From Botryllus schlosseri (lineage: Eukaryota): a stretch of DNA of 64,000 nucleotides. This document shows, one piece after another, positions 1,049-41,330 of the stretch. The stretch is taken from NCBI GenBank assembly GCA_051294905.1, contig CM119371.1, positions 10,418,001 to 10,482,000 of the forward strand, written 5' to 3'. How positions within the stretch are numbered: position 1 is the stretch's first letter; every line of letters begins with the position of its first letter. Under the pieces are notes generated by a model. The model made no database searches, was not told where the DNA came from, and saw nothing but the letters and a program-made list of their open reading frames with translations. The position numbers and the translations under genes were made by a program.

Positions 1049-2473
1049 TTACACTTGTTTTGCATCTTGTAAATATCTCCATAGAAACAGAACAGTCATA
1101 AGGAAGCACAACAAAAATGGCATTGGAAACATGACAGCGAACGCGGAGCTGAATTTATCCATCAAGGCACGCACGCAAGCTGTGCTAAATATCATGAACA
1201 GAACTCCACCCGCCGTCAGAATGCTATACGATTTTAAGCGAATGGGACTGGAGAAGTTGGCTGTTATCCCTGATCCGCGGTGTTTAAGACAAATCTTCAA
1301 TGCAGAACGGGTGGATGATAACGTCAGATACGACACATAAACACCAGCGATATTGTTATAATGGAAGCTCGCAGCTGAACCAGTGAAGGCTAGGATGAGC
1401 AGTGAAGCAACGCAAATTATTGTCAGTCTCGGTTTGGAAAATTTATCAAGAATTTGCCCAACTATAGGTCCCGCAGCAGTTGCGGTTACGATTCCGATGA
1501 TAAACAGCAACCCCACAAACTGATCATTCAAATAGGGAACCTCTTTCAAAATCAAAGAAGATATGAGGGTGGCGCCGTACACTTTGTCGGTCATCGTGAA
1601 AACGTACAGAATAAAAAATATCACATATGGGCGATAATTGAATAGAAATGCGACATCTTTCAGCTCTCCTTTCAGACTGTAAGTCGGTGATGTCTGCACT
1701 AAAGGCGTATTTTCGTTTCGTGCTGGATCATTGTTTATCTCGCTGTGCTCACAAACAGGTGGCTTGTCAGACACGAAACATATTACTAAAACGCAACATA
1801 ATAAGGACATTAGCGACAATGAACCGAATGTCGAAGCGAAAACTATCTTAAATCTGTTATTAATATTTTCAGAAGTAGTAGAGAATATCAATGTTTGCTC
1901 AAGCTCTTGATGGCTATAGGGAATCCCCATTGCTCTTGTAGCAACCAAGTTGGATATCAATAAGGCTAACCGCCCTGTGGCCGATGACATTGCTGTCGCT
2001 TTTCCTCTTTCATGCAAAGGAAACCAATTCACGGACACTAGCTGTGCTATCGGTATAATAATTCCGGCAGCGGTACCGGATAGAAACATCCCAGTAACTA
2101 AGAATCCAAATATTCCTAACAAAACTCCAATTGTTATCAGTAGAGTGGCGCATACGTTCAAAACGCAGGCTACCAAAGTGATTTGCCGAAGGCTGATCCA
2201 ACCACCGATCACGCAGATCACTACACCGCTAGTCAGTCTACCGACGAGATTGGCGATTGCTTGTAAGTCGGTCATGGCTGGATCGATTCCGAAATACCTC
2301 GAAGTGATGTCGTTGACAAATGAGAATGATCCGAAACCGAAGACATCCAATACAGTGATGAAACACACTATCGACGAGATGCCCCATCTTTTCCACACGA
2401 CGCGGTGGCTTCTCCCCTCCAACTGGAACGTCTTGTTGGTTTCTGAATCACAACCACTGTCGGTCGACTTCAT
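1049..2473 (-). CDS. Intronless MFS transporter, SLC49/FLVCR/DIRC2-like (paralog 1), ~474 aa
   Basis: Long ORF with many hydrophobic segments. Motifs HRVVWKRW, SVNWFPLHERGKATA and GQILDKF are typical of MFS/SLC49-type proteins. First in-frame ATG is at 2473 (MKSTDSG); an in-frame TGA lies just upstream of the ORF-track TTG start at 2518. Confidence 0.85.
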   Translation of the reverse strand: MKSTDSGCDSETNKTFQLEGRSHRVVWKRWGISSIVCFITVLDVFGFGSFSFVNDITSRYFGIDPAMTDLQAIANLVGRLTSGVVICVIGGWISLRQITLVACVLNVCATLLITIGVLLGIFGFLVTGMFLSGTAAGIIIPIAQLVSVNWFPLHERGKATAMSSATGRLALLISNLVATRAMGIPYSHQELEQTLIFSTTSENINNRFKIVFASTFGSLSLMSLLCCVLVICFVSDKPPVCEHSEINNDPARNENTPLVQTSPTYSLKGELKDVAFLFNYRPYVIFFILYVFTMTDKVYGATLISSLILKEVPYLNDQFVGLLFIIGIVTATAAGPIVGQILDKFSKPRLTIICVASLLILAFTGSAASFHYNNIAGVYVSYLTLSSTRSALKICLKHRGSGITANFSSPIRLKSYSILTAGGVLFMIFSTACVRALMDKFSSAFAVMFPMPFLLCFLMTVLFLWRYLQDAKQV

Positions 2474-2759
2474 AGCGCAAACAGTCGAGTCAATGTCAGT
2501 CACTCGTTTACATTTCAAGTAATCTTCCGCAATGGCAAATCAATGCAGGAAACGAAATGTTCTATACCAATCTACGCCCACGATTACTTCAGTAATGAGC
2601 ACTAGTATACGTGCCGAAACGAAAGGAAACAGAGAAAGATGATGCTATGAATATTGATTGCTGTGAAATTGGCCTAACGCAGTCGAACCGGATGCTAAGT
2701 TAAGAAGTTACGAATTGGTCGTTTCGGAATGCTTCTATCCGCTCACTGTATCGCATTAT

Positions 2760-12212: not shown

Positions 12213-15200
12213 AGAGAGAGACAGAGAGATTTATTTCGTCAACCGATGACGCCACAATAAATAGAAGTCATATAACTATGCAATATTTAACAAACACAAA
12301 CAGTGGTTTCTCGGTATTGTCTGGTAACGACGATATGATCATGACGATCTTCGTGTCAACCGGAACCAGCGATAATGGTTATTTAAATGAGATAACTTCA
12401 TAACGTAATAACAAACCAGGGTATGCTAATATGGAATGTATTGTACAAAAAGCAATTGCAGCAATAACAAAGAATATATGAAACACATACCAGTTACAGA
12501 CAGTTACAATCAATGTGGAAAAGAAAAAATAGGTTTAGGATTTATAACAGAATGGACAGTGCACAAGCATTGAACTAGTATTTACTCAGAAGAAAGTCAA
12601 GTATCCCTGTCGTAAAAATCAATGATAATTGGAGCTTTTTAGGCGTGGCGGAATCTGCTTGTTCTATACATTTAATGCCTGATCGTTTAAATGAAGGGAA
12701 ACCTCAATAAAAGTGAAACATAACTAAGTTGGAATTTGGGGCAGACCACGTGTAATGACTATGAACATCTCTGCAGTATTGTAATTAGTTCTGTGGAGAT
12801 ACAGGGACTTGCAGCAGATTAATTATATACATTACTTTGGCTAGTTCAAAGATATACATATATAACTAATTTTAAGAATACGCAACTTTTTGTAATACGG
12901 AGCAAATCGACTATAGAGTGGTATTCGATTATTAGCTCTATATCTTTGTTTTGAACGACCTACAGCTGGTTTAAAAGGGTTTTGGTAGCAGATCCCCAAA
13001 TTATTATACCATACTGTAGGTGAGAATGCATGATAGATAAATAAAGAGTACGACGAAATGGTTGTGGAACTATTCGGTTAAGCTTCCATAATAAACCAAT
13101 GTTACGTGAAACTTTTGCGCATACATTGGTGATATGATCATGCCATGTAAGACCAGCATCTATATGAATGCTTAAAAGACTTGAACAGGTCTAGTTGTTG
13201 TCTTGAAATTGCCAGCACTCCTGCATATTTGGAATTGGATAACTCTGATATGCAAGCTCCCTTGCCTATTGGAAGTGCTTGGCACTTTTTAACATTGACA
13301 GAGAATTTGTTGCATCCTAACCAAGTGATTGTACAGTCAAGTCAAGCATTGCATTTCGACACAAGGGTCTCGGCAATTCCTGATTGAAGTGAGAGTTAGG
13401 TGTCGTCTGCGAAAAGGGCTGTAGTAAAATCAGAGCATATTGAAATATCGTTAATATATAGTAAGAATAAGGATGGTCCAAGTACGGATCTCTGTGGAAT
13501 TCCACAGGAAACAGATGGAGAGTTCGATGCTCGATCATTGACTAATGTGTACTGTTTAAGATGTGTAAAGTAATTTTTGAAAATATCCATCACAATTCCT
13601 CGAATACCATAGCACTCAAGTTTATTAATCAATATGCAATGATTGACAGTATCAAATGCTTTCCGCCAGTCAAGGGAAGTACCTATTCCGTGAGTATTTG
13701 TTGCTTTGACATAGTGATAACTAGTGAGAATATCGAGGAGGGCAAGGATGGTTGAATGAAGACATTGGAAGCCATGTTGACGAACACTGATTACTGCGTG
13801 TTTGGACAAAAATTCCATTAACCGAGAGTGCATCAGTTTCTCAAACAGTATCGCGAAGCTAAACAGTACGGATATTGGTCTCTAATTGTCAGTAGAGTAT
13901 CTAGACCAGGAGTGGGCAATTATTTTACTCCGCGTGCAAAATGAGAAATAGAAAATACGTTGGTGGGCCGAGTGAAAAATTCTCCAGCATATTTTAATTT
14001 TATTCCTAAATTACATTGTTAATAAATGCTGCTCTGGGAATGTGTTGATCTTAGGTAATGAGAAAGTGAAGGTTAATTGAAAAAAATATTTATCTGCCGT
14101 CATGATTCGAAACAATGTTAAACATGATATATTTTACCTCTCTCTAAACCCCTATCCACGTTCTTCTATTAAGACTCTAAAACAGTGGTTCTCAAAAACT
14201 TTTTTAGGGATGCCTCCTTGTATGACAGTGAAAAATTCATGATATCACAAAATATTAAAAAGTGCAACCAGAATGCTAGCAATCCCAGCGGATAGTTTGA
14301 TGGCAGGGAAGGTAATGACTGTTGATGAAAGAATTCTGAAATATCAAAGTCGGACAATACACAGAGCAATAAGTATACGCTGGGGGTAAAGTAAACTTTG
14401 GCTTCGCCCCCCCCCCCCCCCCCTCCCCAAACCTTCTGATGCTTTCACGCCTCCTAGTTCGAGAACCACTGCACCCAAATGTATATGCAGTAGTGCAAAG
14501 CTTATTTTCTTGGTCGCTGCCTTCCGAGCAGTGTGCACCGTGCAGCTTAGATAGCCTTTATGTTGAGCGAAGCTTGTAGTTTTTTGAACTTCGCCATCCC
14601 TTGACCGAGTGTTTCGTGTGTTTGTCATAATCCCTAATCTCGGCGACATGCTAGGCAAAAACTAAAACTAGAAACTAAAACTAGAAGGACGGGTTTACCG
14701 ATGACTCCAGTATTCAAATATTTAGCGCCCTGAAGTCTAAACCTTCTTTTAATTTCAGTTTTCGGCATTCTTTTTTTGGCATGCCCGTTGGCGTTAATCC
14801 TTTATGGGTGATCGATATGATGAGTCATATTACTCATATAGTAACTGTCAGCACTGATTGACTTGTTTTACGAATTTGGGAGTTGGAAACGCATCACGTG
14901 ACAATTTGAAACACATACCGTATAATGCGTAATGTGACAATGGCAACAAAAAGGGTTCGAACTATATAGGCTATGTGGAAAGAGTGATTTCTTGTGACTT
15001 TAATTGCTACTAATACTTTGCCACATTGCCTTTGTTTTGAATCTGTATTACGCATGCGCGGTGCGTAGGCAGCGTAATCGTGGCATATTAATGAACGGGC
15101 TTCAAAGCATACGAATTTCCTGTTCAATTCATAGAGCCTGGGGTTTTAGTCATTCAACAAGCAAGTTTTGTGTTTTGAATTCCAAGCAACCTTTCGCGGG

Positions 15201-22154: not shown

Positions 22155-23917
22155 CTAAATACTCTTCTGCAATCCTATCTGAAATAGGCCTACAACGTAT
22201 TTTCCGCGAGTGATATCCCAAAGTAAGCAGCTGTCCTGCTCGTCTGTCAGTTCCTTCCTGCGAAAATAGAGCGGTCGATATTCTGGAGATAAGCCGCTAG
22301 CGGGCCAATCATTAATCGCATAGTAATTTACACGACATGACAGCGGGTCTCGGCGCGTCTCAAAACCAATCCTTTTCGATGTTATTGGCATATTGTTTAC
22401 TTGTATTGCATTTCTCTTGTTGGCTTCATGCGTTGATGGATCCACATCGGCTGATGCATTCGAGGGACTTCCGGAAAGCCAATCCGCAGTAACATTCCGC
22501 TTACCCGGTTTGTAACGTATTTCGTAATTATAACCCGCGAGTTTGATTGCCAAACATTGCAACCTGGATGCGGCTAGCACGGGTATACCAATCTTTGGAC
22601 CTGGAATCAATGCCAAGGGTTGGTGGTCCGTACATAGGGTAAACCTCCTCACGCACAAGTAATGATGAAATCTCTGTAACCCGAATATTATGGCCAGAGC
22701 TTTTTTCTCGATGTGGGAATAGTTTTTCTCGGCTGCTGACAATGTATGAGACGCGTACGAGAATGGGCGCTCAGTCGCTCACGTTCTCCATCGCGTTGCA
22801 TGATTACTGCTCCTAAACCAGAGGCGCGTCTACTGACATCGTAATCGGTTTATCAGGGCCATAGTGAGCCAATACCAAATCGGAGGTAAGGCAATGTTTC
22901 GAGACTCCGAAGGCCTTTTCACAAGCATCATTCCACTTCCACTTCACATTCTTTCTTATCAAGTTCGTTAACGGTTGCAACAGACTGGATGGGATCGGTA
23001 TAAATTTTTTATGGACATTTACCAGCCCGAGAAAAGACCGCAGCACACTTACGTTGTTTGCGCGGCAAGCGGAAGTCACTGATCGCAAATTTGAGTTGCT
23101 CGGTCGTATGCCATTCCGGGGACTCTTCCAGGAAACAACACTTGGACTTTTCAGCTTTCAAACCATATTTATCCAAACGATTACACACAGTTATTAACAG
23201 CTCAAGATTTCCCTTCTCCGAAGACCCTGTGATTAAGATGTCGTCCAGTAAACACGTGAATTCAGTCCTCGCAGCACCTGATCCATCAATTGCTGAAAAA
23301 TCGTCGGCGCTGATGCCACTCCAAACGGAAGTCAGGTGTTTGTTTGTTTTGAGGTACTCGTGACATTTGTCGACTACTATGGTCGTTTACACCAGGCCCA
23401 TATTCTTCACAGCCTATGTAAACCTCTAACACTTAGGTATAGGACTCGAACCCGAAAACCCATTGGTGTTGCAGCCGCGGATTATGCCACTGCGCTATCT
23501 CGCCGGGTCGGAAGTCGGGTGTATCTGAACAATCCGAGATGGGTGTTGATCACCACGTAATTATGCGCGTCGTCATCAAGCTCCGCTTGCGTGTACGCTT
23601 GTGATGAATCGATCTTGCTGAAATACGAACTTTTCCTTCCGTTGCGAAGCACCAGTAAGTCGTCTGGGGTCGGTAATGATATTCGGGTGTATCCAATTGC
23701 GGATTGATCGTAAACTTAAAGTCGCCGCAAATACGAACTTCATCGGACGCCGGTATAGAACAGGCACAATTGGACTTGCCCAGTCGGAGTGCTCAACCAA
23801 TTCCAACACACCAGTATCCACTAACATACGCTCAAACAGTTAATCTTGTATCCGGTCCTACCCTTGCGCCTTGTACATTTTCCGGGGCACATCTTCCTTA
23901 TGTGTCTAACCTGTCTG
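22155..23917 (-). pseudogene. Decayed Gypsy (Ty3/Gypsy, Mag-like) pol: RT and RNase H
   Basis: Motifs HSDWASPIVPV, LRSFLGLVN, WKWNDACEKAF, LAHY, AEKNYSHIEKKALAIIFG and FTLCTDHQPL, with multiple frameshifts. Confidence 0.85.
23340..23509 (-). mobile_element. tRNA-derived SINE inserted in Gypsy RT
   Basis: Head GGCGAGATAGCGCAGTGG...GGTTCGAGTCC (A and B boxes); (AAAC)n tail; TSD ggaagtc(a/g)ggtgt. Confidence 0.75.
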
Positions 23918-23944
23918 CACGCAAGTAGTTAGTATGATCGGTCG

Positions 23945-24460
23945 TGGTGTGCCATTGTCTCTTATGGGCGGGGTGGTGAGGTGCCTGAAAACCGGGGGTG
24001 GTGAGGTGACCCTTATCTCTTATGGCGGGGGTGGTGAGGTGCCATTGTGTCTTATGGCGGGGGTGGTGAGGTGACCCTTATCTCTTATGGCGGGGGTGGT
24101 GAGGTGCCTGAAAACCGGGGGTGGTGAGGTGACCCTTATCTCTTATGGCGGGGGTGGTGAGGTGCCATGTGTTTTTATGGATGCGGTGATGATGGTACCC
24201 GTTCAGACCCCCTATCGCTCGTGATGTGCCAATGGTTCTTATGGGATCTCTGGTGATGTGTCATTGTTTCTTACGCGGTCTCTGGTGATGTGCGATTGGT
24301 TCTTATGGGATCTCTGGTGATGTGCCATTGTTTCTTATGGTATCTCTGGTGACGGCACCCTTTCGGGTATAGGCTACGTCGGTGATGTGTCTGTCATGTA
24401 TTCTTACGGGATCTGTGGTGATTCACCATGTGTTCTTATGGGTGCGGTCGTGATTCGCAC
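23945..24460 (+). repeat. Subterminal G-rich tandem array (mirrored at ~37093-37608)
   Basis: 7 copies of GGGGTGGTGAGGTG in ~25/33-bp units, then ~32-bp TCTTATGGGATCTCTGGTGATGTG-type units. Confidence 0.9.
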
Positions 24461-27400
24461 TTTCAACCATCTCTCGCGCGGTGTTGAATAGTCACCAACA
24501 ATAACCGCACAAACGGAAACGTGGCTTGTTGTGAGGATTAAGCAGTGCGACCTATATTCCGAATGACCTGCGCGGGGAAACTCGTGTTGGCATGCGGCTC
24601 TTATGTCTTATGGGTGCGTTGGCATGCGGCTAGCGTTATTCTTATGGACGCGGCGGTGATTCGTACTTTCGGGTATAGACTGCGGGTGGCATGTCGTACT
24701 TTTAGCAAAAAACGGTGTGGAATAGTTTACAAAATCTTAGAATCACTCGCAGAATTATATTTTGGTAATTATTTTGTCACAGAGCCGGCGTAGACGGCGA
24801 TTCCAATACCAACAATAACCGTGCACACAAACTAACACTTCAAAAAGGGTGTGAAATATTTGTAAAATGCTACGATCACTCACAAGATAATGTCCCAGAC
24901 ATAACCATCATTCGTGACTTGATGTTACATACATACCAATCGCTCACAAGGTAATATTTTGATAGTTTGGTACGGAACTTGATTTCACTCGTAAGATTTA
25001 TTAAGTAACGAATAACAGACCACCAGTGTCGGTAACTTGAATAGCGACAAATTGTCACTTATTTCCGCTCTAACCCTAATCCTTTGTGAAGTGAACGCTT
25101 ATTCAAAAGGGTGTGATATAATTTTAAAATCCAACGACTACTCACCGGATAATGCTTCAGACATATAGCAATCCCTCATACCCGCTCACAAGGTAATATT
25201 TCGGTAATAAGTTTGTCACAGAACCGTCGCAGGCGGTGATTCGAAAACCAACAATTTGTCACTCGCCCGCGATCGCTATATGTTTCACGCCTCCAGAATA
25301 GTGGCTGACTTTAGTTGCGTGATAAGATCCATGAAAATATTCAATCAATGTGTTAGTTTATCAACTTGAAATGAAACTCACTACACAAATCAAGTCGATT
25401 CGTATCTGAATGTTTTAAATCGGTACAACTCTAATCCTTTGACAAATCCCTTAACGCGTTTTTGTTGAATCGAACGTAACCCGAATATATTATTCGCACA
25501 TTCCGCGCCACTGTTTTCACACTTATAGAATCAATACCAACTATAACTCTACAAGAATCAAGAATCACAAGTATGTGCATTACACAGTTATTGTCTTTAT
25601 TAACTTGAAATCAAACACTTAACAAAAACACGCAACTAATCATTTGGCAACTCTAGCATTACCAAAAAATTCCAGTATTGTTGATTGAAAATCCTTGAGT
25701 CATTATCATCAAAAATGTTATAGTACCGCATCGGAATCCATTCGCGGGATGTACTAAAAGTAAATCCAGATAATCCAAAATGAAATATTTGGACTTTGAC
25801 AAACATGACTACTAACTTTGATCCAGTCACATTTCAAGATTATACTTTGAAACAATCCTTGAAACTTACAACTCTATTCACGACTGAGTTTTCCGTTTAT
25901 CAAATAGAGTTTCAGTAAATACTATCGCGATATTTTAATGTGTTACTACACACAATAGAATCATTCAATGAAATAGCACCTGTTGTAAATATTTCTAACT
26001 TGACAACCACTTGTGCATACCGCGATCGACTTGTGACGCGATGAGTTAAATCGGAATATTTCAATCTATTTGTCGAAACCTTGAACAAGCTATCGGGTTA
26101 TTTTTTGTTGCAATCGAGTGAACGGAAATAGTATTACGTCTCAACATTTTAACATCTTCCCATACACAAAAGAGTAAAATACAAAAAAAACCTTGTCAAG
26201 TCAATCGGTTTGTAACTTACCCAACCAAAGCAAAAAGTATCCTTATGAAAAGTAGACAAGACTACGCGAGTAATCACCACAATCCAAAATCCATAGCAAG
26301 TTCGGTTGTATTCATAGTCCACCAACTCGTATTTTTATTCAACTGTAAAAGTCGTTACTATTCCGCAAGACAAAGAAATTACTATGTGGTATATTTTGTA
26401 AGACAAAAGTAATTACTTCTCGGTGTCGGCGACTTGAGATTAACATATGTTTTGAGTATATGATATTTGAATGTCTGACCAACGTAGTTAAGAATTCATT
26501 TTATACTATCGAACACCGGTATTACATTGAAAGTTATCATGATGTAAACATAAGGATTGACACATGGATTTGACATATGTAATAGTTGATCATGACTTGA
26601 TTATTAAATTATTCGCGTTAATTAGACCCGGTGTTGCGGTAAGGGTTATTATGACAGCAACAAACTTTTCACCACCGTGGTTATTAACATATTGATTTGT
26701 AAAACTATACTTGTCTGAAATGTTCTTGGTTTGAAAGATATTCCGTGTTGGTACAAATCACTCTGTGTATTACGGATATCAGAAAATATTTTTACAAATG
26801 TAGTTGTTTCCAGTAACCAAGACTAAAGATGACACAACAATTTCGTTTGGAATATCTTTACTGGACGCATCCTATTCTACTAGACTTGAGTAATACACAA
26901 AACTCATAGCATTAACAAAATCACAATAGGCGCTACACTGAAATCTACAAAATGTGTTTGTATTGTTAATCAAAGTAGTGATCATAAATTATCATTTAAA
27001 TAAGTAATTGTAATCATAAAACCAAACTTGTGAAAGTCATTACCATAACAAAAGAATATTGTAGGTTGCTTGCTAAATGTATGCCGGAAATATTTGTAGA
27101 ACGCTCACGACCAAAGAAATCGGAAATTTCTCCCCATTGTCATTCGTCAAAGTATATGTTGTCACAATACTCAACCCGTAAAAGATCTTACTTGTATGTG
27201 ATTGAATCGCCGGTAATTAACTCACTAAATCAAACCATAAGGAAATTTCACTCAGTCATCGGATTATGATATTAAACAGCGTCGCTTAATCGGTGTAGAG
27301 CGTTTTTCTAAATGCAAATCATACCTGACCGACAGAAAACAATTTTCACTCACCTTGTAATGAAACCAAGTGGTGGGCCTTCGTTCAATATTTTGTTTGT

Positions 27401-28904
27401 GTCAAATACTTTGCAATAAACACACACACTGGAGTGGTTGAGCTTTACATCATCAAGCTGTCATCTGTAAATCGAGATCACATCCGACTTGTAACTGCAT
27501 CGTTTACCTAACCGAGTTGTATGCACATTGCACAGTTTCATATTTTTATCATTTAGTGATTGCTGAACATACCAAACGATACACATTCACTTCCGAAATA
27601 CTGCGTTGATCTCAATTCCCTTTATCGTGATAACCGAAGTACATTTGTTTCGAATTCGTAACAGCCGACTTTTCTATGACACGATAAATTTTGACAAGTT
27701 ATGCTTAGAAGATTGGTTGCATATCACGAAAAATAACATACTGCTCATATTGATACTGTTAATCGGTATTTTCACGCGAGTCGATTTTCAAATGAGTAAA
27801 ATTTATTACATGAGTTTCTCCGCTTAATGTAAATGAAAACTCAGTCGTCTTTTAACATCACAAAGACATTGATAAAAAGTAAGCAATCAAACACAACACT
27901 TTGTACGACACTAATTATTGTTCCACACATCTCATTTCATACTAAGTGTATACGAAAGATATTCATGTTACACGAAAGTATCCGCTCATGCTACAAACCT
28001 GTACAATGATTGGTGGTGTAAGTCCAGCACAATTGTGGTATCCATACGAGTTTAGTTAACACAATTTACGACACCGAGGTCGCCTCATCCTTCGTAAGAC
28101 AACAAACCAAGGCTTCAGGATATGTCCATGGCATAACAATAAATCAGCTACTCCAACAACAGAGTACATATGTTTTCTAGCACGGTGCTTACATCTTACA
28201 CACAAATCAACCTACTTTGCTAACGAAAAGTGCTGAGTCATCACATGGTTGTCCTCACAACAATACAACACATGGTTGTCCTCACAACAATACAACTAAA
28301 ACATACTATCATACAAAATGGCCGTTATAGTTTGCACACCAACGATACATCGTACAAGTAGCAAGTCTCGAGAATCCAGTTATTCAAAAAAACGTGAAAG
28401 TGTTTCTACGCCAAGTCGGTATGTTGACGAAAGCATATATTGTAATATCATGATCGATTTACATTCGTTGGTCACAAAATGTCACTACTCTAAAAAATTA
28501 TTTTTCACTCAAAGTCTACTTGTCACCATTCGTTTCATCAAGCACGAGTTCAAGAAACCTGCTACGGCATGAATTGTTATTTTTATGTTGTGTAAATAGG
28601 TAATAATTAATTTTAGTAACACTATATCAACATCATCGAGTTGCGCGAATAGATTTACATGTGGTCTTGTGGTTTTAATCGAAGTATACAGCACGGTCTA
28701 ATGTAGAGTCATCTCTACTGTACAGCAACTCGGTAATCGAAATGTATTAAAATTTAAACAACGATCTTGTTTCGTCGCACCAAAAATATGTTTACTATCG
28801 CGATACTCTGCACAGGCCGTGTAAATCCTTTTCACACTCGTAATAGTATGCCAACAGCTACCGGCGACAACGTTTAACAATACCAACGACACTAAACATA
28901 CGAT

Positions 28905-29480
28905 ACCTACCCAAGTAAAATTACCATTTTCACCAGGAGGTCGGTCGTTACCCGAGTAGAAATACCATCGTCCTTTGAAGATTTATCGTTTACCCAGTGT
29001 AACAAACCCCTTTTCCTTTGGAAATCTATTTTTTCTCTGGGTAACAAACCTTTTTCACTTGGAAATATATTTTTTCTCTGGTTAACAAACCTTTTTCACT
29101 TGGAAATATATTTTTTCTCTGGGTAACAAACCTTTTTCACTTGGAAATATATTTTTTCTCTGGGTAACAAACCTTTTTCACTTGGAAAGATATTTTTTCC
29201 CCGGGTAACAAACCTTTTTCCCTGAGCAACAAACCATTTTCACTTGGTGGTCCGTCGTTTACCCGAGTAAAAATATCCTTTTCTTTTGGAGATCCGGCGT
29301 TTACCCAGTGTAACAATACATTTTCACTTGGAAAAATACTTTTACCTAGAGTAACTAATCATTTTCTCCTGGGTAACAAACCCTTTTCGTCTGGAAACTA
29401 TCATTTACCTGAGTACCAATACAGTTTTCACTTGGAAATCTACCTTCTCCCTGGGTAACAATATCATTTTCGTTTTGAAA
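28905..29480 (+). repeat. 41/42-bp minisatellite (mirrored at ~31890-32420)
   Basis: Unit CTCTGGGTAACAAACCTTTTTCACTTGGAAATATATTTTTT; left arm has one more unit than the right. Confidence 0.9.
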
Positions 29481-31173
29481 ACTGACAACCACACCGGCCA
29501 ATTTGATAGTTTTGTATATTGTTACAACGGGCAGTGACAAAATATACACCAACAACGACTCCGATACATTTGTCTAATCAAATATTCACTTGCTCTGATG
29601 CATCCCATCAAAATCATTGGTTACTCACATACAATAACAATGAGCTGTTGTACATCGACATGTATGTTTTCGAATTGGCGAATAAAGGGGTTTCCGATAT
29701 GTTCGTGATGTCCGGTTTCGTGCTTTGGATTTTCCAGAGTCAAAATGTCTGAATAAAACACCTCCTCGACTTTGGTAGCTGGTTGATACACGGATAATGA
29801 ATTTATGTTCCCAATCGCGCTAACAACTCCGGATTACTTGTGAGTTTCCTCAGGTCTGTTTACTATTTTGTGTCTTTACTGATCAATACATGTCGCTCCA
29901 GTCAGCTGAAACCGGATCACTAATATGAGAAAGTGTGTGGGGGCCTGATCCGGATATTCACTCATGAACCAACGACCAATATTCAAGTAAACATGCTACA
30001 GACCGTGTTTTGTCTCCATGAAAAATACCAATGCATACACCATCACATACAAGTAACGTCACGATTGTTCACAAGTATTCGCGTAAACGAGGTATACATA
30101 CAATGTGTCGGTGTACAAACATCATGGTAAACAAATTCAAGTTCTCAAGTCTCATCATGCGACGACTCTGTACATTCAATGTGGGCATAGATGACTTGGA
30201 GACAGGCAAGCAGCCATATTTGGACGTAACACGGTCTTAGTTTGAACCGACCTCCACCCAACTTGTGAAAAATCAATCTCACACGAGTACAACGCTTTCA
30301 CGGATTCACACCTTGATTTTGTAAGATTGTTCGGATTCTCAGGTAGACTTGTATCGTGATACAGACTTCGACATAATCGGGTTGCGTAACTCGCTCAATC
30401 CCACCACGTATTGTTCGTCCTAACCTGCGAACTTTTTTGCTGAGACCACAGTGTTTCACCCGGCGTAATGTATTTGGCGATCACCATCGTTATCAATCTT
30501 TCACGCGATGAATATGTCAGATGTCGCTACTCCCACATAACGACTACAGATAAAAATCGTGAGCAGTGACTCCGGATTGAAATCGTAAACAGGGACTCTG
30601 TGCGTGTGTGTGAATCTCGAGTTCGATTACGATTAGATAATGTAATCCAAGGTGTGTCTCTGCGAGTTGAAGGCTTATTTCATGTTAATCACACCGCAAG
30701 AGGGTGCTATCTCGTAATTCTACAGGTCGTTATAAAACACGATTGGAAACTTTTGGTCTAGTCGATCCAGCTACGTATTGAAACGGTGCACCCACACAGA
30801 CCATTGAGAAAACATCGTCGTAACCTAACCATATCCACGAGTAAATATGGGACTACGCGTAACTGTCCATAGATTCCTCTGGCCCCACGCCGTGGTTTTA
30901 CGTCACAGACAAAATGCGGCAGTGGAAATATTAAAAATGAAAAACGATACCTTGGTGACATTTGATTTGGATTTTACACCTGATGAACCATACACTCGAT
31001 TGGTACATTGGGAGGAAAACTCTATCGTCAAGGTTGAGGGAAAAGAAATGTACAGATTTGTTGTTGTTGTGGATATTCAGCGAAAATCAGGGTATATGAT
31101 TGTGTATGGTTCGCATATTTGACTGAGAATATATCAACATGCATGTTGCGCTGTCAATTGTATCATGCCGTGT

Positions 31174-34100
31174 GTCATCTATGCCCACATTGAATGTACA
31201 GAGTCGTCGCATGATGAGACTTGAGAACTTGAATTTGTTTACCATGATGTTTGTACACCGACACATTGTATGTATACCTCGTTTACGCGAATACTTGTGA
31301 ACAATCGTGACGTTACTTGTATGTGATGGTGTATGCATTGGTATTTTTCATGGAGACAAAACACGGTCTGTAGCATGTTTACTTGAATATTGGTCGTTGG
31401 TTCATGAGTGAATATCCGGATCAGGCCCCCACACACTTTCTCATATTAGTGATCCGGTTTCAGCTGACTGGAGCGACATGTATTGATCAGTAAAGACACA
31501 AAATAGTAAACAGACCTGAGGAAACTCACAAGTAACCCGGAGTTGTTAGCGCGATTGGGAACATAAATTCATTATCCGTGTATCAACCAGCTACCAAAGT
31601 CGAGGAGGTGTTTTATTCAGACATTTTGACTCTGGAAAATCCAAAGCACGAAACCGGACATCACGAACATATCGGAAACCCCTTTATTCGCCAATTCGAA
31701 AACATACATGTCGATGTACAACAGCTCATTGTTATTGTATGTGAGTAACCAATGATTTTGATGGGATGCATCAGAGCAAGTGAATATTTGATTAGACAAA
31801 TGTATCGGAGTCGTTGTTGGTGTATATTTTGTCACTGCCCGTTGTAACAATATACAAAACTATCAAATTGGCCGGTGTGGTTGTCAGTTTTCAAAACGAA
31901 AATGATATTGTTACCCAGGGAGAAGGTAGATTTCCAAGTGAAAACTGTATTGGTACTCAGGTAAATGATAGTTTCCAGACGAAAAGGGTTTGTTACCCAG
32001 GAGAAAATGATTAGTTACTCTAGGTAAAAGTATTTTTCCAAGTGAAAATGTATTGTTACACTGGGTAAACGCCGGATCTCCAAAAGAAAAGGATATTTTT
32101 ACTCGGGTAAACGACGGACCACCAAGTGAAAATGGTTTGTTGCTCAGGGAAAAAGGTTTGTTACCCGGGGAAAAAATATCTTTCCAAGTGAAAAAGGTTT
32201 GTTACCCAGAGAAAAAATATATTTCCAAGTGAAAAAGGTTTGTTACCCAGAGAAAAAATATATTTCCAAGTGAAAAAGGTTTGTTACCCAGAGAAAAAAT
32301 AGATTTCCAAAGGAAAAGGGGTTTGTTACACTGGGTAAACGATAAATCTTCAAAGGACGATGGTATTTCTACTCGGGTAACGACCGACCTCCAGGTGAAA
32401 ATGGTAATTTTACTTGGGTAGGTATCGTATGTTTAGTGTCGTTGGTATTGTTAAACGTTGTCGCCGGTAGCTGTTGGCATACTATTACGAGTGTGAAAAG
32501 GATTTACACGGCCTGTGCAGAGTATCGCGATAGTAAACATATTTTTGGTGCGACGAAACAAGATCGTTGTTTAAATTTTAATACATTTCGATTACCGAGT
32601 TGCTGTACAGTAGAGATGACTCTACATTAGACCGTGCTGTATACTTCGATTAAAACCACAAGACCACATGTAAATCTATTCGCGCAACTCGATGATGTTG
32701 ATATAGTGTTACTAAAATTAATTATTACCTATTTACACAACATAAAAATAACAATTCATGCCGTAGCAGGTTTCTTGAACTCGTGCTTGATGAAACGAAT
32801 GGTGACAAGTAGACTTTGAGTGAAAAATAATTTTTTAGAGTAGTGACATTTTGTGACCAACGAATGTAAATCGATCATGATATTACAATATATGCTTTCG
32901 TCAACATACCGACTTGGCGTAGAAACACTTTCACGTTTTTTTGAATAACTGGATTCTCGAGACTTGCTACTTGTACGATGTATCGTTGGTGTGCAAACTA
33001 TAACGGCCATTTTGTATGATAGTATGTTTTAGTTGTATTGTTGTGAGGACAACCATGTGTTGTATTGTTGTGAGGACAACCATGTGATGACTCAGCACTT
33101 TTCGTTAGCAAAGTAGGTTGATTTGTGTGTAAGATGTAAGCACCGTGCTAGAAAACATATGTACTCTGTTGTTGGAGTAGCTGATTTATTGTTATGCCAT
33201 GGACATATCCTGAAGCCTTGGTTTGTTGTCTTACGAAGGATGAGGCGACCTCGGTGTCGTAAATTGTGTTAACTAAACTCGTATGGATACCACAATTGTG
33301 CTGGACTTACACCACCAATCATTGTACAGGTTTGTAGCATGAGCGGATACTTTCGTGTAACATGAATATCTTTCGTATACACTTAGTATGAAATGAGATG
33401 TGTGGAACAATAATTAGTGTCGTACAAAGTGTTGTGTTTGATTGCTTACTTTTTATCAATGTCTTTGTGATGTTAAAAGACGACTGAGTTTTCATTTACA
33501 TTAAGCGGAGAAACTCATGTAATAAATTTTACTCATTTGAAAATCGACTCGCGTGAAAATACCGATTAACAGTATCAATATGAGCAGTATGTTATTTTTC
33601 GTGATATGCAACCAATCTTCTAAGCATAACTTGTCAAAATTTATCGTGTCATAGAAAAGTCGGCTGTTACGAATTCGAAACAAATGTACTTCGGTTATCA
33701 CGATAAAGGGAATTGAGATCAACGCAGTATTTCGGAAGTGAATGTGTATCGTTTGGTATGTTCAGCAATCACTAAATGATAAAAATATGAAACTGTGCAA
33801 TGTGCATACAACTCGGTTAGGTAAACGATGCAGTTACAAGTCGGATGTGATCTCGATTTACAGATGACAGCTTGATGATGTAAAGCTCAACCACTCCAGT
33901 GTGTGTGTTTATTGCAAAGTATTTGACACAAACAAAATATTGAACGAAGGCCCACCACTTGGTTTCATTACAAGGTGAGTGAAAATTGTTTTCTGTCGGT
34001 CAGGTATGATTTGCATTTAGAAAAACGCTCTACACCGATTAAGCGACGCTGTTTAATATCATAATCCGATGACTGAGTGAAATTTCCTTATGGTTTGATT

Positions 34101-37100
34101 TAGTGAGTTAATTACCGGCGATTCAATCACATACAAGTAAGATCTTTTACGGGTTGAGTATTGTGACAACATATACTTTGACGAATGACAATGGGGAGAA
34201 ATTTCCGATTTCTTTGGTCGTGAGCGTTCTACAAATATTTCCGGCATACATTTAGCAAGCAACCTACAATATTATTTTGTTATGGTAATGACTTTCACAA
34301 GTTTGGTTTTATGATTACAATTACTTATTTAAATGATAATTTATGATCACTACTTTGATTAACAATACAAACACATTTTGTAGATTTCAGTGTAGCGCCT
34401 ATTGTGATTTTGTTAATGCTATGAGTTTTGTGTATTACTCAAGTCTAGTAGAATAGGATGCGTCCAGTAAAGATATTCCAAACGAAATTGTTGTGTCATC
34501 TTTAGTCTTGGTTACTGGAAACAACTACATTTGTAAAAATATTTTCTGATATCCGTAATACACAGAGTGATTTGTACCAACACGGAATATCTTTCAAACC
34601 AAGAACATTTCAGACAAGTATAGTTTTACAAATCAATATGTTAATAACCACGGTGGTGAAAAGTTTGTTGCTGTCATAATAACCCTTACCGCAACACCGG
34701 GTCTAATTAACGCGAATAATTTAATAATCAAGTCATGATCAACTATTACATATGTCAAATCCATGTGTCAATCCTTATGTTTACAGCATGATAACTTTCA
34801 ATGTAATACCGGTGTTCGATAGTATAAAATGAATTCTTAACTACGTTGGTCAGACATTCAAATATCATATACTCAATACATATGTTAATCTCAAGTCGCC
34901 GACACCGAGAAGTAATTACTTTTGTCTTACAAAATATCCCACATAGTAATTTCTTTGTCTTGCGGAATAGTAACGACTTTTACAGTTGAATAAAAATACG
35001 AGTTGGTGGACTATGAATACAACCGAACTTGCTATGGATTTTGGATTGTGGTGATTACTCGCGTAGTCTTGTCTACTTTTCATAAGGATACTTTTTGCTT
35101 TGGTTGGGTAAGTTACAAACCGATTGACTTGACAAGGTTTTTTTTGTATTTTACTCTTTTGTGTATGGGAAGATGTTAAAATGTTGAGACGTAATACTAT
35201 TTCCGTTCACTCGATTGCAACAAAAAATAACCCGATAGCTTGTTCAAGGTTTCGACAAATAGATTGAAATATTCCGATTTAACTCATCGCGTCACAAGTC
35301 GATCGCGGTATGCACAAGTGGTTGTCAAGTTAGAAATATTTGCAACAGTTGCTATTTCATTGAATGATTCTATTGTGTGTAGTAACACATTAAAATATCG
35401 CGATAGTATTTACTGAAACTCTATTTGATAAACGGAAAACTCAGTCGTGAATAGAGTTGTAAGTTTCAAGGATTGTTTCAAAGTATAATCTTGAAATGTG
35501 ACTGGATCAAAGTTAGTAGTCATGTTTGTCAAAGTCCAAATATTTCATTTTGGATTATCTGGATTTACTTTTAGTACATCCCGCGAATGGATTCCGATGC
35601 GGTACTATAACATTTTTGATGATAATGACTCAAGGATTTTCAATCAACAATACTGGAATTTTTTGGTAATGCTAGAGTTGCCAAATGATTAGTTGCGTGT
35701 TTTTGTTAAGTGTTTGATTTCAAGTTAATAAAGACAATAACTGTGTAATGCACATACTTGTGATTCTTGATTCTTGTAGAGTTATAGTTGGTATTGATTC
35801 TATAAGTGTGAAAACAGTGGCGCGGAATGTGCGAATAATATATTCGGGTTACGTTCGATTCAACAAAAACGCGTTAAGGGATTTGTCAAAGGATTAGAGT
35901 TGTACCGATTTAAAACATTCAGATACGAATCGACTTGATTTGTGTAGTGAGTTTCATTTCAAGTTGATAAACTAACACATTGATTGAATATTTTCATGGA
36001 TCTTATCACGCAACTAAAGTCAGCCACTATTCTGGAGGCGTGAAACATATAGCGATCGCGGGCGAGTGACAAATTGTTGGTTTTCGAATCACCGCCTGCG
36101 ACGGTTCTGTGACAAACTTATTACCGAAATATTACCTTGTGAGCGGGTATGAGGGATTGCTATATGTCTGAAGCATTATCCGGTGAGTGGTCGTTGGATT
36201 TTAAAATTATATCACACCCTTTTGAATAAGCGTTCACTTCACAAAGGATTAGGGTTAGAGCGGAAATAAGTGACAATTTGTCGCTATTCAAGTTACCGAC
36301 ACTGGTGGTCTGTTATTCGTTACTTAATAAATCTTACGAGTGAAATCAAGTTCCGTACCAAACTATCAAAATATTACCTTGTGAGCGATTGGTATGTATG
36401 TAACATCAAGTCACGAATGATGGTTATGTCTGGGACATTATCTTGTGAGTGATCGTAGCATTTTACAAATATTTCACACCCTTTTTGAAGTGTTAGTTTG
36501 TGTGCACGGTTATTGTTGGTATTGGAATCGCCGTCTACGCCGGTTCTGTGACAAAATAATTACCAAAATATAATTATGCGAGTGATGCTTACGAATATTT
36601 CACCGCGTGAGCGATTGATATGTCTGTAACACCAAGTCGCGAAAGATGGTTATGTCCGAGACATTATCTTGTTAGCGATCGTGGGATTTTACAATTATTT
36701 CACACCTATTTGAAGTGTTAGTTTGTGTACACGGTTATTGTTGGTATTGGAATCGCCGTCTACGCCGGCTCTGTGACAAAATAATTACCAAAATATAATT
36801 CTGCGAGTGATTCTAAGATTTTGTAAACTATTCCACACCGTTTTTTGCTAAAAGTACGACATGCCACCCGCAGTCTATACCCGAAAGTACGAATCACCGC
36901 CGCGTCCATAAGAATAACGCTAGCCGCATGCCAACGCACCCATAAGACATAAGAGCCGCATGCCAACACGAGTTTCCCCGCGCAGGTCATTCGGAATATA
37001 GGTCGCACTGCTTAATCCTCACAACAAGCCACGTTTCCGTTTGTGCGGTTATTGTTGGTGACTATTCAACACCGCGCGAGAGATGGTTGAAAGTGCGAAT

Positions 37101-37629
37101 CACGACCGCACCCATAAGAACACATGGTGAATCACCACAGATCCCGTAAGAATACATGACAGACACATCACCGACGTAGCCTATACCCGAAAGGGTGCCG
37201 TCACCAGAGATACCATAAGAAACAATGGCACATCACCAGAGATCCCATAAGAACCAATCGCACATCACCAGAGACCGCGTAAGACACAATGACACATCAC
37301 CAGAGATCCCATAAGAACCATTGGCACATCACGAGCGATAGGGGGTCTGAACGGGTACCATCATCACCGCATCCATAAAAACACATGGCACCTCACCACC
37401 CCCGCCATAAGAGATAAGGGTCACCTCACCACCCCCGGTTTTCAGGCACCTCACCACCCCCGCCATAAGAGATAAGGGTCACCTCACCACCCCCGCCATA
37501 AGACACAATGGCACCTCACCACCCCCGCCATAAGAGATAAGGGTCACCTCACCACCCCCGGTTTTCAGGCACCTCACCACCCCGCCCATAAGAGACAATG
37601 GCACACCACGACCGATCATACTAACTACT
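31174..37629 (-). repeat. Right inverted arm (6456 bp)
   Basis: Mirror-coordinate sums 61369, 61328 and 61553 shift by exactly 41 and 225 bp; 6272-41+225=6456. Confidence 0.97.
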
Positions 37630-38557
37630 CACGCATGACACAGCGCTATTTGAAAAATACAATTGTGTTCTCCGTGGTTAGATATACCGCAGCGCAGTCA
37701 CCCGCTGTTCCCTTCGTACCATCACGGTGCTGTAACTACCACTATCGAAAAGTTGTCTTCCCGCTGCTTCTATTGCGACAGCCTTTTAAACGGCGTCTTA
37801 TAAGCTCAAATCTTTCTCCAACAGTAAGTACTCTTGGATAGGTCTCGAGCGCAAACCTCAGATGAGTGGATCCCGAATTACTTGAGTTAAGAATTGCCCC
37901 GCTCGCGATGTTCCGACAATTTCTTTAGAAGGCAATAATTCGATTTAACAATCCTGTCTAGCAAAACGAGGGTGTAGCCAAGAAGAAAGAATCAGACAGA
38001 AGTGTCTCGATCTCAATGCAAAATTCGGGGCTGATTTTTTTTGGGGGAGGGGGAGGGGGTTTCCAGGACCATGAGCAGAAGAAAATTTATATTTTCGTAA
38101 TCAGTACAGCAGCAGCTTTCTATTGATACCCGTTTTAGCGAATTTAGCGTTCGGCAAGCCAGTCAAACATTGGCCGTACAGCTGCCATTGGCCAAATGGA
38201 AAGTATGACGTAACCCAAATGCAGAGAGCCGTTCAATCTCGCTGTGTCCACATCATATAGTACACTATGTTTCAACATCTCCGCAGCCATGGGAACAGTT
38301 CTAGCATCCTCTGGATGCGAGCACACCTGGTTAAGAAACACTGGCCCAGAGAATCACCATATACATTAAAAAATAAGAGCAATAAAATCACAACATATTT
38401 TTATCCTGACTCGTGCCTGACCTGCTGAGATAATATCGACTACTCGCCGAAGTATAGGCACAGGCATCAATTTCCACTCATGCACCGCCTATATAGTAAT
38501 ATAGTCAAGTTGGATAAAACAATAATTGCCAAATCGAGGCCCATATACTGTAAAATA

Positions 38558-39979
38558 TTACACTTGTTTAGGATCTTGTAAATATGACCAAAGAAACAGA
38601 ATAGCCATAAGGAAGCAGAGCAAAAAGGGCATCGGAAACAAGACACCGAATGCGGAGCTAAAATTGTCCATCAATGCACGTACGCAAGCTGTGCTAAATG
38701 TCAAGAACACAACTCCACCTCCCGTCAAAATGCTATACGATTTCAATCGAATGGAACTAGGCATGTTGGCAGTAATTCCCGATCCGCGGTGTTTCAGACA
38801 GATCATCAACGCAGAACGAGTGGATGTTAACGTCAGATACGACACATAAACACCAGCGATGTTGTTATAATGGAAGCTAGCTACTGAAGCAGTGAAGGCG
38901 ATGATCAACAGTGAAGAAACGCAAATTATTATCAGTCTCGGTTTGGAAAATTTATCAAGAATTTGACCTACTATAGGTCCCACAGCAGTCGCCGTTACGA
39001 TACCAATGATAATCAGCAACCCAACAAATTGATCATTTAAATAGGGAAATTGTTTCAAAATCAAAGAAGATATAAGGGTGGCGCCGTACGCTCTGTCGGT
39101 CATCGCGAAAGAGTACAGGATAAAAAATATCGCGTATGGGCGATAAGTGAATAAACATGCGACGTCTTTCAGCTCCCTTATCAGGCTGTAGGTCTTTGTC
39201 TGCAGTAAAGGCGGTTTTTCGTTTGGTTCTGGATCATTAAGTAGTTCGCCATTTTCACAAACAGGCGGCTTGTCAGACACAAAGCATATTACTAAAACAC
39301 AACAAAATAAGGACATTACCGACAATGAGCCGAATGTCGCAGCGAAAACAATCCTAAATCTGCTATCAATATTATCGGAAGTCGTTGAGAATGTCGATAT
39401 TTGCTGAAGCTCTTGATGGCTATACGAAATCCCCATTGCTCTTGTAGCAACCAAATTAGACATCAAAGATGCTAGCCGCCTTGTAACAGATGACATTGCT
39501 GACGCCTTTCCTCTTTCATGCAAAGGAAACCAATTCACTGACACTAGCTGTGCTATCGGTATTATAATTCCGGCAGCGGAACCGGATAGAAACATCCCAG
39601 CACATACCAGTGGGAATATTCTTAACAAAACTCCCATTGTAACCAGTACTGTGGCGAATCCGTTCAAGACGCAGGCTAGCAGAGTGATTTGCCGAAGGGT
39701 GATCCAACCACCGATCACGCAAATCACTACAACGCTAGCCAGTCTACCGACGAGATTGGCGATTGCCTGTAAGTCCGTTATGGCTGGATTGATTCCGAAA
39801 TATCCCGATGTAATATCGTTGACATATGAGAATGATCCGAAGCCGAAGACATCCAATACGGTGATGAAACACACTATGACTGAAATGCCCCATCTTTTCC
39901 ACACGACGCGGTGCCTTCTCCCCTCCAACGGGAACGTTTTGTTGGTTTCTGAATCACAACCACTGTCATCTGACTTCAT
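38558..39979 (-). CDS. Intronless MFS transporter, SLC49/FLVCR/DIRC2-like (paralog 2), ~473 aa
   Basis: Collinear with and highly similar to the 1049-2473 protein; first ATG (MKSDDSG) at 39979; flanks are also homologous. Confidence 0.85.
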   Translation of the reverse strand: MKSDDSGCDSETNKTFPLEGRRHRVVWKRWGISVIVCFITVLDVFGFGSFSYVNDITSGYFGINPAITDLQAIANLVGRLASVVVICVIGGWITLRQITLLACVLNGFATVLVTMGVLLRIFPLVCAGMFLSGSAAGIIIPIAQLVSVNWFPLHERGKASAMSSVTRRLASLMSNLVATRAMGISYSHQELQQISTFSTTSDNIDSRFRIVFAATFGSLSVMSLFCCVLVICFVSDKPPVCENGELLNDPEPNEKPPLLQTKTYSLIRELKDVACLFTYRPYAIFFILYSFAMTDRAYGATLISSLILKQFPYLNDQFVGLLIIIGIVTATAVGPIVGQILDKFSKPRLIIICVSSLLIIAFTASVASFHYNNIAGVYVSYLTLTSTRSALMICLKHRGSGITANMPSSIRLKSYSILTGGGVVFLTFSTACVRALMDNFSSAFGVLFPMPFLLCFLMAILFLWSYLQDPKQV

Positions 39980-41330
39980 GGCACAGACAGTCGACGCGAT
40001 GTCAGTCACTCGATTCAGGTTCAGAGAATCTTCCGCAACGGCAAATCAATGCACGTACCTGTACCAAGCTACGCAACGATGACTTGAGCAATGAGCACGA
40101 GTACGATCATTCGTGCCGAAACGGAAGGAAATATAGAGAGCATACGCTATGAATGGGCTATTGATTGCTGTGAAATTGGCCTATGATAGCGTAGCGATGA
40201 GCGTCAGTGCCATCTGATGAAATTCAGAATCTACAGTTCTACACCGTTCTACCTGCGGCTTGAGATTTTTATTCCTTACACTGGACAAACACCAGTCCAA
40301 CACACACAGCAGAGTATATAACAGCGGACCTGTTCATAGCAGTGATGAGCATCGGAGCGGAGTCGGAGTGTATCCGGAGCGAAGTTTTGCCAATTTTGTG
40401 ATACTCGGAGTGGAGTCGGAGTTTACTACAGATATTTTTCCGGAGTTTTCCGGAGTGTTGTAGGTTTTGCCCCTGATATCTTTCGATAGCTCTGACCAGA
40501 AGACACTATTGATTACAGACCAAAACACAGACAGTTGACACCTTGTAAAATTGTAATATGACGGGTAACATGCAAAATTGATTGCCAAGTGCATAAAAAT
40601 CAGCCACCTGCACTGCAATTGGGGACTGGAGAGTAACCTAGTGATCTAGCAAGGCATTTTCGGCGAGCAGTGTCTGTAGTTCACAAAATTGAAGGCACCC
40701 AATATCATTCGCAGCAGACATGGGGTGATTACTTCATGAATGTAATCGATTGCGATTACGATTACTTCTGAATGACGCGATTACGATTACGATTACAGCA
40801 AAATCAGGAAGTAGTCGATCACGATTACGATTTCATTGGAAAAGTAATCACGATTACTCACGATTACATTTATTTTGCATCTTAGAAGTTCTATTGGAAG
40901 ACAATATATGGATTGCGCTGAAAAGGCCTAATGAGAACAACTTTCTTTAAAAAAGAAGCGACATTTGCTTGTTACGTCATAAAGTACCCATTGCTCATTT
41001 TATATTGGACGATTTATCGCACCCAACGATTTGCATTCTTGCCAGGTCCACAACTGCCGAACCCCAAATTTCCTAATAGGGTGGGATCGAGCTCGAAGTG
41101 GACTCGGTAGTATTTCGTAAACCAACACAAATTATAGACTATTTTCGAGAGATTTCATGAACTTGAAAATTGTCTACGAGCATCGCGATTTAAATGTCTC
41201 TAGATAGCTTGATTTTGAAATACATAGCCTACGTCTGTCGATCTCCTCCTCAAGAAAAAAAGCATGCATAATTTATAATAACAGGCATTTAGGCGCCAGT
41301 CACTACCGCGCCACGACACACCAAGAGACA

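Follow-up and report, generated by a model that had tools for sequence, protein, structure and literature searches.

The closest described systems to the element analysed here are the Mavericks, also known as Polintons, for which protein-primed self-copying and the formation of virions have been proposed, neither of which has to our knowledge been directly shown. Indeed, the available text of a review states that the Polinton life cycle awaits experimental characterisation (PMC5499653). In the available text of a survey of vertebrate genomes (Barreat & Katzourakis 2021; PMC8097293), intact Mavericks measure 12.7–24.6 kb (mean 16.9), carry terminal inverted repeats (TIRs) of 46–1,447 bp (mean 402) and occur at a median of eight elements per genome. 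They end in the motif 5'-(AGT)2//(ACT)2-3', an (AG)3 type also being known, and are flanked by a perfect 6-bp target-site duplication (TSD); the repeated end motif is interpreted there as enabling jumping-back in protein-primed replication. Here we describe a 13,706-bp element at positions 23924–37629 of a 64,000-nucleotide stretch of the Botryllus schlosseri genome (assembly GCA_051294905.1, contig CM119371.1, positions 10,418,001 to 10,482,000 of the forward strand; the whole stretch is referred to below as the window). This element agrees with the vertebrate Mavericks in end motif, 6-bp TSD, presence of TIRs and size range, and departs from them in TIR length and gene content. It is very probably a non-autonomous, gene-less Maverick derivative that depends on other elements and has retained only its cis-acting ends. 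The Polinton/Maverick termini ascribed to it in a preliminary description, made from the letters alone, hold good, as (AGT)2//(ACT)2 ends with a perfect 6-bp TSD are given as a Maverick hallmark in the available text of PMC8097293.

Inverted-repeat detection and direct comparison of the arms define positions 23924–37629 as a single palindrome. The left arm (23924–30195, plus strand, 6,272 bp) opens with AGTAGT, the right arm (31174–37629, minus strand, 6,456 bp) is its mirror image and closes with ACTACT, and 978 bp of unique sequence (30196–31173) form a central loop; arm sequence makes up 92.9% of the element. Near-perfect arms of ~6.3–6.5 kb around 978 bp, a TIR share of ~93%, and AGTAGT...ACTACT ends within an exact CACGCA duplication had all been put forward in the preliminary description, and these values bear it out, the ends and the duplication both being read at the junctions. 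Both arms are composed of three collinear inverted-repeat blocks, whose breaks coincide with differences in tandem-repeat copy number. Direct comparison and MAFFT alignment count 10 substitutions in ~6,230 aligned positions, an identity of ~99.84%, the 100% of the inverted-repeat output being a rounded value. Two indels separate the arms, both of them differences in the number of tandem units: an extra 225-bp unit on the right and an extra 41-bp unit on the left. A flip-flop of the loop has no definable orientation in such a structure, the arms being symmetric.

The window element is a real insertion. It interrupts a host interspersed repeat, the left part of which (23509–23923) and the right part (37630–37928) lie outside the element, and it is adjoined by CACGCA on the left (23918–23923) and again on the right (37630–37635). 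In each of the five fetched copies of the host repeat the two flanks are contiguous and overlap by exactly CACGCA, present there once. These paralogous empty sites fix the boundaries of the insertion and its 6-bp duplication independently of the element itself. They also bear on the explanation that the palindrome is an artefact of assembly, produced by a mis-join or by a chimeric read that folds back on itself. This family did cause difficulty in assembly: two related copies (C3:21976001-22002000 and C13:4143001-4167000) contain a 100-N gap inside their duplicated palindromic structure, indicating that neither could be resolved by the assembler, and the read unitigs on the window, all shorter than 320 bp, extend across the left flank, the left arm and the loop, and over 227 bp of the right arm. 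An artefact would have to reproduce, however, the clean 6-bp duplication seen against five of five empty sites, arms that differ from each other by the 10 substitutions and two indels, and an architecture that recurs with different TSDs at every other fetched locus and in +/− pairs of termini spaced 13–14 kb apart. We consider this explanation very improbable, the least likely of those weighed here.

The longest stop-to-stop frame within the element is 97 aa. None of the 33 frames of at least 60 aa in the left arm and loop has a Pfam match above noise, and neither Rfam families nor tRNAs were found in the element. By these frame and Pfam scans, the Maverick gene set (polymerase, rve integrase, capsid, protease and packaging ATPase) is absent from the window element, in line with the earlier report of a lack of open reading frames for the protein-primed polymerase (pPolB), integrase, ATPase and capsid. 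In one RNA run 38 reads were found, most of them lying only partly on the window.

The element belongs to a large family of several hundred copies. Searches of the 495.5-Mb, 219-contig assembly scored the best 30–150 candidates, so that the counts given here are lower bounds. A degenerate pattern of the 21-nt terminus found 237 forward and 245 reverse matches, compared with 0 for its reversed control, while the commonest terminus variant, with at most three mismatches allowed, found 436 and 421 against 8 and 6 in the control; the variant present in the window, four positions off, goes uncounted in the latter search. The 171 listed termini resolve into 71 +/− pairs and 29 single termini, and the spacing of the listed pairs is 13.0–14.2 kb in 33 cases, 15.9–16.7 kb in eight and more than 20 kb in 12. 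Seven of the listed pairs lie 26.8–32.1 kb apart and may resemble the mega-palindrome C2 described below. On a rough estimate (~420 termini per strand × ~14 kb), the family may account for ~1% of the genome. The centre of the window element (loop and inner arm ends, 1,801 bp) is found nearly whole at 35 other places at 91–97% identity, and the arm interior is found elsewhere as inverted pairs at 93–96%.

All of the copies fetched are palindromes that lack genes. Copy A (14,041 bp) has arms of 6,562 bp that are 99.92% identical around a 917-bp loop, and copy B (13,376 bp) has arms of 6,231 bp (99.90%) around a loop of 926 bp. Copy D (16.4 kb; arms 4,812 bp, 99.875%) lacks a simple loop, and 4.2 kb in one of its halves are unrelated sequence. 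Copies E (C1:38594660-38605000, 10.3 kb; arms 870 + 3,164 bp, 100%; loop 1,682 bp) and F (C2:38556342-38565622, 9.3 kb; arms 3,445 bp, 100%; loop 2,413 bp) are shorter, and their loops consist of inner-arm sequence of the full-length form, reversed. Both are therefore central-deletion derivatives, from which an asymmetric deletion removed the original centre. At the other extreme are copy C2 (C2:34453730-34485313, 31,584 bp; arms 14,426 bp, 99.917%) and copy C5 (C5:23596004-23624000, 25.5 kb; arms 4,170 bp, 98.68%). In C5 one arm carries a nested Gypsy-type retrotransposon with protease, reverse transcriptase, RNase H and integrase domains, and the other a 3.4-kb insertion with adjoining frames of 185, 261 and 261 aa, none of which matches Pfam, the two 261-aa frames also being without a match in the PDB. 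The longer copies C5, C2, C3, C13 and D were considered as candidates for autonomous elements and ruled out, as all are palindromic and the extra length of C5 consists of nested insertions. A perfect 6-bp direct repeat flanks all 12 elements for which both junctions were read: CACGCA (window), TACGTC, AACGTT, CACACA, ATTGGG, GGCGAG, AACGTT (a second element), GGTGTG, ACCGAT, AGCATT, CTTGTG (C2) and ACCATG (an element bearing a polymerase, discussed next). The further palindromic copies with other 6-bp TSDs that the preliminary description had proposed to look for thus exist, and no TSD of another length occurs among the 12.

Relatives with genes are present in the same genome. A weak search of the genome with a model of the A32 ATPase led to a locus (C1:40333401-40335200) with two adjacent frames. 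The first is the C-terminus of a polymerase; it matches no Pfam family itself, but its full-length relatives of 1,235–1,500 aa carry PF03175, the family of protein-primed (family-B) polymerases. The second is a 205-aa ATPase (Pox_A32, E 3e-9). A genome search with the polymerase piece found at least 150 loci (150 of 237 candidates were scored), many with open frames of 1,290–1,380 aa; these loci fall into three or more lineages at 97–100%, ~72% and ~44% identity to the sampled piece. The lineage of the A32 locus was tried as a partner with the same terminus and rejected, as its matches on contigs C1–C3 lie outside all listed AGTAGT pairs and it has other termini. Four of the 71 listed terminus pairs do enclose a polymerase match, and all four are 16.1–16.6 kb long; elements of this kind lie, for example, at C3:28.38 Mb, C3:24.45 Mb, C9:21.94 Mb and C4:11.08 Mb. 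The presence of a polymerase within these same-terminus pairs, and its absence from the window copy, mark the latter as only a non-autonomous derivative.

One of the polymerase-bearing elements was sampled at its ends. It is flanked by ACCATG as TSD. It shares its initial 21 nt with copies A and E without a mismatch, and its initial 302 bp match copy F at 94%; other pieces match other copies at 85–92% and positions 523–651 of the window element at 89.7%. In each of the seven ends examined, one of them from a polymerase-bearing element, the subterminal motif CTTATGG...GGTGA first occurs at position 38 or 39. The palindromic family therefore shares its termini and subterminal sequence with coding elements of the same genome, and the proposal in the preliminary description that coding elements with the same terminus be sought has been answered by polymerase-bearing elements with the 21-nt terminus and a 6-bp TSD. 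The same observations weigh on a second alternative, in which the family would be an unrelated foldback cut-and-paste DNA transposon (of the FB, Galileo or sea-urchin TU type) that happens to have Maverick-like ends. Long inverted arms, tandem repeats at the tips, little coding sequence and variants with internal deletions are typical of foldback elements, and the window family likewise has very long arms, tandem repeats near its tips, no coding capacity and shorter central-deletion derivatives. An unrelated transposon would not be expected, however, to share 21 identical nucleotides, 302 bp at 94% and a further ~720 bp at 93–95% with elements that bear a polymerase. Moreover, all 12 elements with both junctions read have a TSD of 6 bp, in contrast to the 7–9 bp of Galileo and FB, and no transposase of another superfamily was seen in any fetched copy, the sole coding relatives found being carriers of a protein-primed polymerase. 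We regard a foldback origin as very improbable.

The sequence shared with the polymerase-bearing elements also indicates how the palindrome may have been formed. A 976-bp end of the sampled polymerase-bearing element was used as a query against the genome, with scores computed for the top 40 of 2,616 initial candidates. Sixteen of the 40 places form eight inverted pairs 11.9–14.3 kb apart, which are palindromic copies. Another 12 are single, have no inverted partner and have a polymerase match on the opposite strand 7.5–12.9 kb inward, while the remaining 12 are single with no scored polymerase. A further region of ~720 bp matches the palindromic copies at 93–95%. On these ranked matches, the region at ~254–976 is present at one end only in the polymerase-bearing elements and in both arms of the palindromic ones, a distribution that fits copy-back. 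Its presence in both arms points to an inverted duplication of one end, which copy-back predicts and internal deletion does not. The reading offered in the preliminary description, a non-autonomous copy-back derivative of a Maverick that a helper would integrate in trans, thus gains support from the shared ends together with the one-end sequence found in both arms. Mobilisation by a helper, an origin by template switching in strand-displacement replication as opposed to chromosomal repair, and any defective-interfering effect are inferences.

Comparison among copies bears on the age of the palindrome and shows that its arms evolve in concert. The loop of copy A is homologous to that of copy B from end to end (88.6%), and both are partly homologous to the loop of the window element (75% over 248 bp), so that the palindrome is older than these subfamilies. 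Between subfamilies, 28–69% of the half-element aligns, at 80–86% identity, while the arms within a copy are 99.8–100% alike. We propose a model whereby one Maverick end, inversely duplicated, together with ~5 kb of non-coding filler, gave rise to the palindrome: synthesis begun at one end would turn back on itself, leaving ~1 kb as a loop, and the palindrome would then have been propagated as such to several hundred copies. The cis-acting parts retained would be the (AGT)2 motif, the ~21-nt conserved terminus and at most ~1 kb of subterminal sequence with its arrays of the ~32-bp motif. Polymerase and integrase would be supplied in trans, the likely source being the 16.1–16.6-kb polymerase-bearing elements, and the 6-bp duplication would be the work of that integrase. 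The arms would be re-templated from each other repeatedly, remaining near-identical while the lineages diverge. The model of Kapitonov and Jurka is said to include a single-stranded, racket-shaped intermediate paired through the TIRs; such a single strand would here fold into a nearly complete hairpin, in which mismatches between the arms could be repaired. Whether the palindrome arose, and is renewed, by the turning back of end-initiated synthesis is in our judgement an evenly balanced question, the copy-back step itself being postulated from the structures described above.

A third alternative accepts the same family identity and the same helper and places the events in the chromosome. The palindrome and the identity of its arms would be made there by fold-back repair or break-induced replication at an integrated element and upheld by continuing gene conversion between the arms, as in large genomic palindromes, and the integrase would simply move whatever has two good ends. 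Copy C2, which shows the re-templating put forward above, also bears on this account. In it, a left arm of the window type, a loop and a short piece of the right arm are followed by a second palindromic element, after which the first part recurs in mirror image; the right flank of the nested element reads as the reverse complement of the left one at all 30 of 30 nt, and no direct TSD is present there. The mirrored flanks indicate that one half was synthesised from the other after the nesting took place. Synthesis-dependent repair off the other arm would explain this junction, and arms of 99.8–100% identity, equally well, and the outer TSD of the mega-palindrome is intact, so that it could have been formed in place. 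On the other hand, C5 has three insertions each confined to one arm and arms of 98.68% identity; in-place conversion is evidently not relentless, though this is a single old copy and carries little weight. The 1.3% divergence of its arms and its one-arm insertions suggest, from this single case, that arms drift once integrated. Furthermore, the palindrome is ancestral, with subfamilies that align over 41–53% at 80–83%, and conversion would be needed in every lineage and in every copy. A chromosomal origin of the palindrome, with an integrase indifferent to what lies between the ends, is in our view possible, though on the unlikely side.

The lengths of the copies have led us to consider a further step beyond turn-back replication. 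Three diverged subfamilies have nearly equal total lengths (13.4, 13.7 and 14.0 kb), and the main length class of 13.0–14.2 kb (33 of 71 pairs) is ~80–88% of the 16.1–16.6 kb of the polymerase-bearing elements. A length class so near the size of the helper is expected if gene-less filler serves to satisfy the packaging limit of a capsid, packaging being itself a supposition. Undersized helper-dependent adenovirus genomes are recovered as multimers of near wild-type length. More than passive non-autonomous transposons, the palindromes may then be genomes that Maverick viruses package, either as satellites or as defective-interfering forms, a suggestion that we put forward tentatively and consider somewhat doubtful. 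If it is true, each round of protein-primed strand displacement would pass through a single strand that folds back, with concerted arms resulting from mismatch repair; the family would be a genomic fossil record of extrachromosomal, protein-primed Maverick replication and of virions, and the palindromes would be a natural hyperparasite competing with the Mavericks.

Several points weigh against a Maverick derivative shaped by copy-back and mobilised in trans. The long-range structure of the window copy rests on the assembly, and fold-back repair with arm-to-arm conversion in the chromosome could give the same structures without extrachromosomal replication. Shared sequence with the polymerase-bearing elements is established to 976 bp, compared with a further ~5 kb in each arm, and the assignment of this sequence to one end is based on ranked search matches rather than full sequences, the verdict of 'no partner' relying on where a partner would be expected to rank. 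An integrase was looked for in the polymerase-bearing elements and not found, by an rve search that was swamped by retrotransposons: the 150 matches scored among 1,389 candidates were all retrotransposon-like, and the four pairs enclosed none of them. A search of the whole genome with the PF03175 model gave no match, its control also being silent, and was exposed as a false negative by the at least 150 polymerase loci; adenain (PF00770) was likewise without a match genome-wide, again with a silent control, so that this is no evidence of absence. A tblastn search with two pieces from one lineage, its ATPase and the C-terminal part of its polymerase, found no match in the window or in any fetched copy, and the terminus pattern is unmatched in the viral and metagenome contig collections searched.

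The remaining features of the element and its surroundings can be described briefly. The conserved terminus (23924–23944, plus strand) consists of (AGT)2 followed by TTAGTATGATCGGTCG and is unlike the commonest family variant at four positions. It is succeeded by subterminal arrays of 32–33-bp, 58-bp and 123-bp units (23958–24456, plus strand) with the core motif CTTATGG...GGTGA, the first copy of which is at element position 38, and tandem-repeat detection recovers the mirror image of these arrays at 37097–37595 (minus strand). The 225-bp unit is present in 1.9 copies in the right arm (36381–36811, minus strand) against one in the left and is the larger source of the difference in arm length, while the 41-bp array has 5.4 copies in the left arm (28999–29220, plus strand) and 4.4, one unit fewer, in the right (32149–32329, minus strand). 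The k-mer depth of the 41-bp array is very high in three DNA runs. In run X1, the zone of this repeat at 28864–29431 has a k-mer depth of ~91,000–133,000, compared with ~14–16 for unique pieces of the flanks; being far above that of the rest of the arm, this depth indicates that the 41-bp unit also abounds in other parts of the genome. The interrupted host repeat has at least 14 further copies at 79–90% identity, 13 of them at 87–90%, and the copy in the window lacks ~630 bp present in other copies. Two uninterrupted frames that match the Major Facilitator Superfamily (MFS_1), at 1049–2539 (minus strand, 496 aa, E 3e-20) and 38558–40045 (minus strand, 495 aa, E 4e-16), are apparently paralogous transporter genes without introns, separated by 36 kb, the second lying 0.9 kb from the right end of the element. 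Retrotransposon remnants, with reverse-transcriptase and RNase H frames, are found at 13396–13881 and 22155–22778, both on the minus strand.

A gene-less family of near-helper length, derived from one end, is the kind of by-product expected of linear, end-initiated, strand-displacing replication, and the shape of the element looks like a fossil of the Maverick mode of copying. The family would thus offer an abundant natural substrate for testing the proposed protein-primed, and possibly virion-forming, life cycle of Mavericks. The palindromes outnumber their helpers, and surveys of Mavericks based on integrase or polymerase would miss the bulk of the DNA that Mavericks mobilise. Hundreds of near-perfect inverted repeats of 6 kb are also a potential source of genome instability, of assembly gaps, as in two of the copies, and of long hairpin RNA. 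The literature covered, which excludes Repbase and subscription journals, yielded no account of Maverick derivatives that are palindromic or lack genes and no link between Polintons or Mavericks and copy-back forms, the copy-back reports found being of RNA viruses. Within that literature, the element appears, from its sequence, to be a previously undescribed form of Maverick derivative.

Compared with the Mavericks and Polintons in the available text of PMC8097293, the family is alike in its (AGT)2//(ACT)2 ends, perfect 6-bp TSD, TIRs and a length within 12.7–24.6 kb, and it is unlike them in being gene-less, in its 6.3-kb TIRs, ~15 times the published mean of 402 bp, and in its hundreds of copies against a median of eight elements per genome. 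Its ends are common to co-resident elements with a protein-primed polymerase, and a co-resident Maverick locus of another lineage encodes an A32-like ATPase; both ends of the window family, in contrast to those of Mavericks, would derive from one parental end. Tlr1 elements, the only ones to which the term 'non-autonomous polintons' is applied in the literature covered, and transpovirons are, in the available text of PMC5499653, linear-DNA relatives of Polintons with TIRs and a reduced gene set, yet they code for proteins (a helicase and others), whereas the window family codes for nothing and is palindromic. Like miniature inverted-repeat transposable elements and other non-autonomous DNA transposons, the family has the ends of its autonomous partner, lacks genes and outnumbers that partner, but it measures 13–14 kb rather than tens to hundreds of base pairs, a length near that of the helper and kept across diverged subfamilies. 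Foldback elements such as FB, Galileo and Tetris resemble it in their long arms, tip repeats, length variation and arms that are closer within than between copies, and differ from it in their P- or MuDR-type transposases, TSDs of 7–9 bp and arms several times shorter. The last comparison is with copy-back or snap-back defective viral genomes, which among DNA viruses include the defective genomes of adenoviruses and parvoviruses. Unlike these, the window family is integrated in the germ line, multi-copy and diversified, and it is known here from integrated DNA alone; like them, it would have both termini from one end, has lost its coding sequence, has kept the ends that would serve replication and packaging, and presumably needs a helper.

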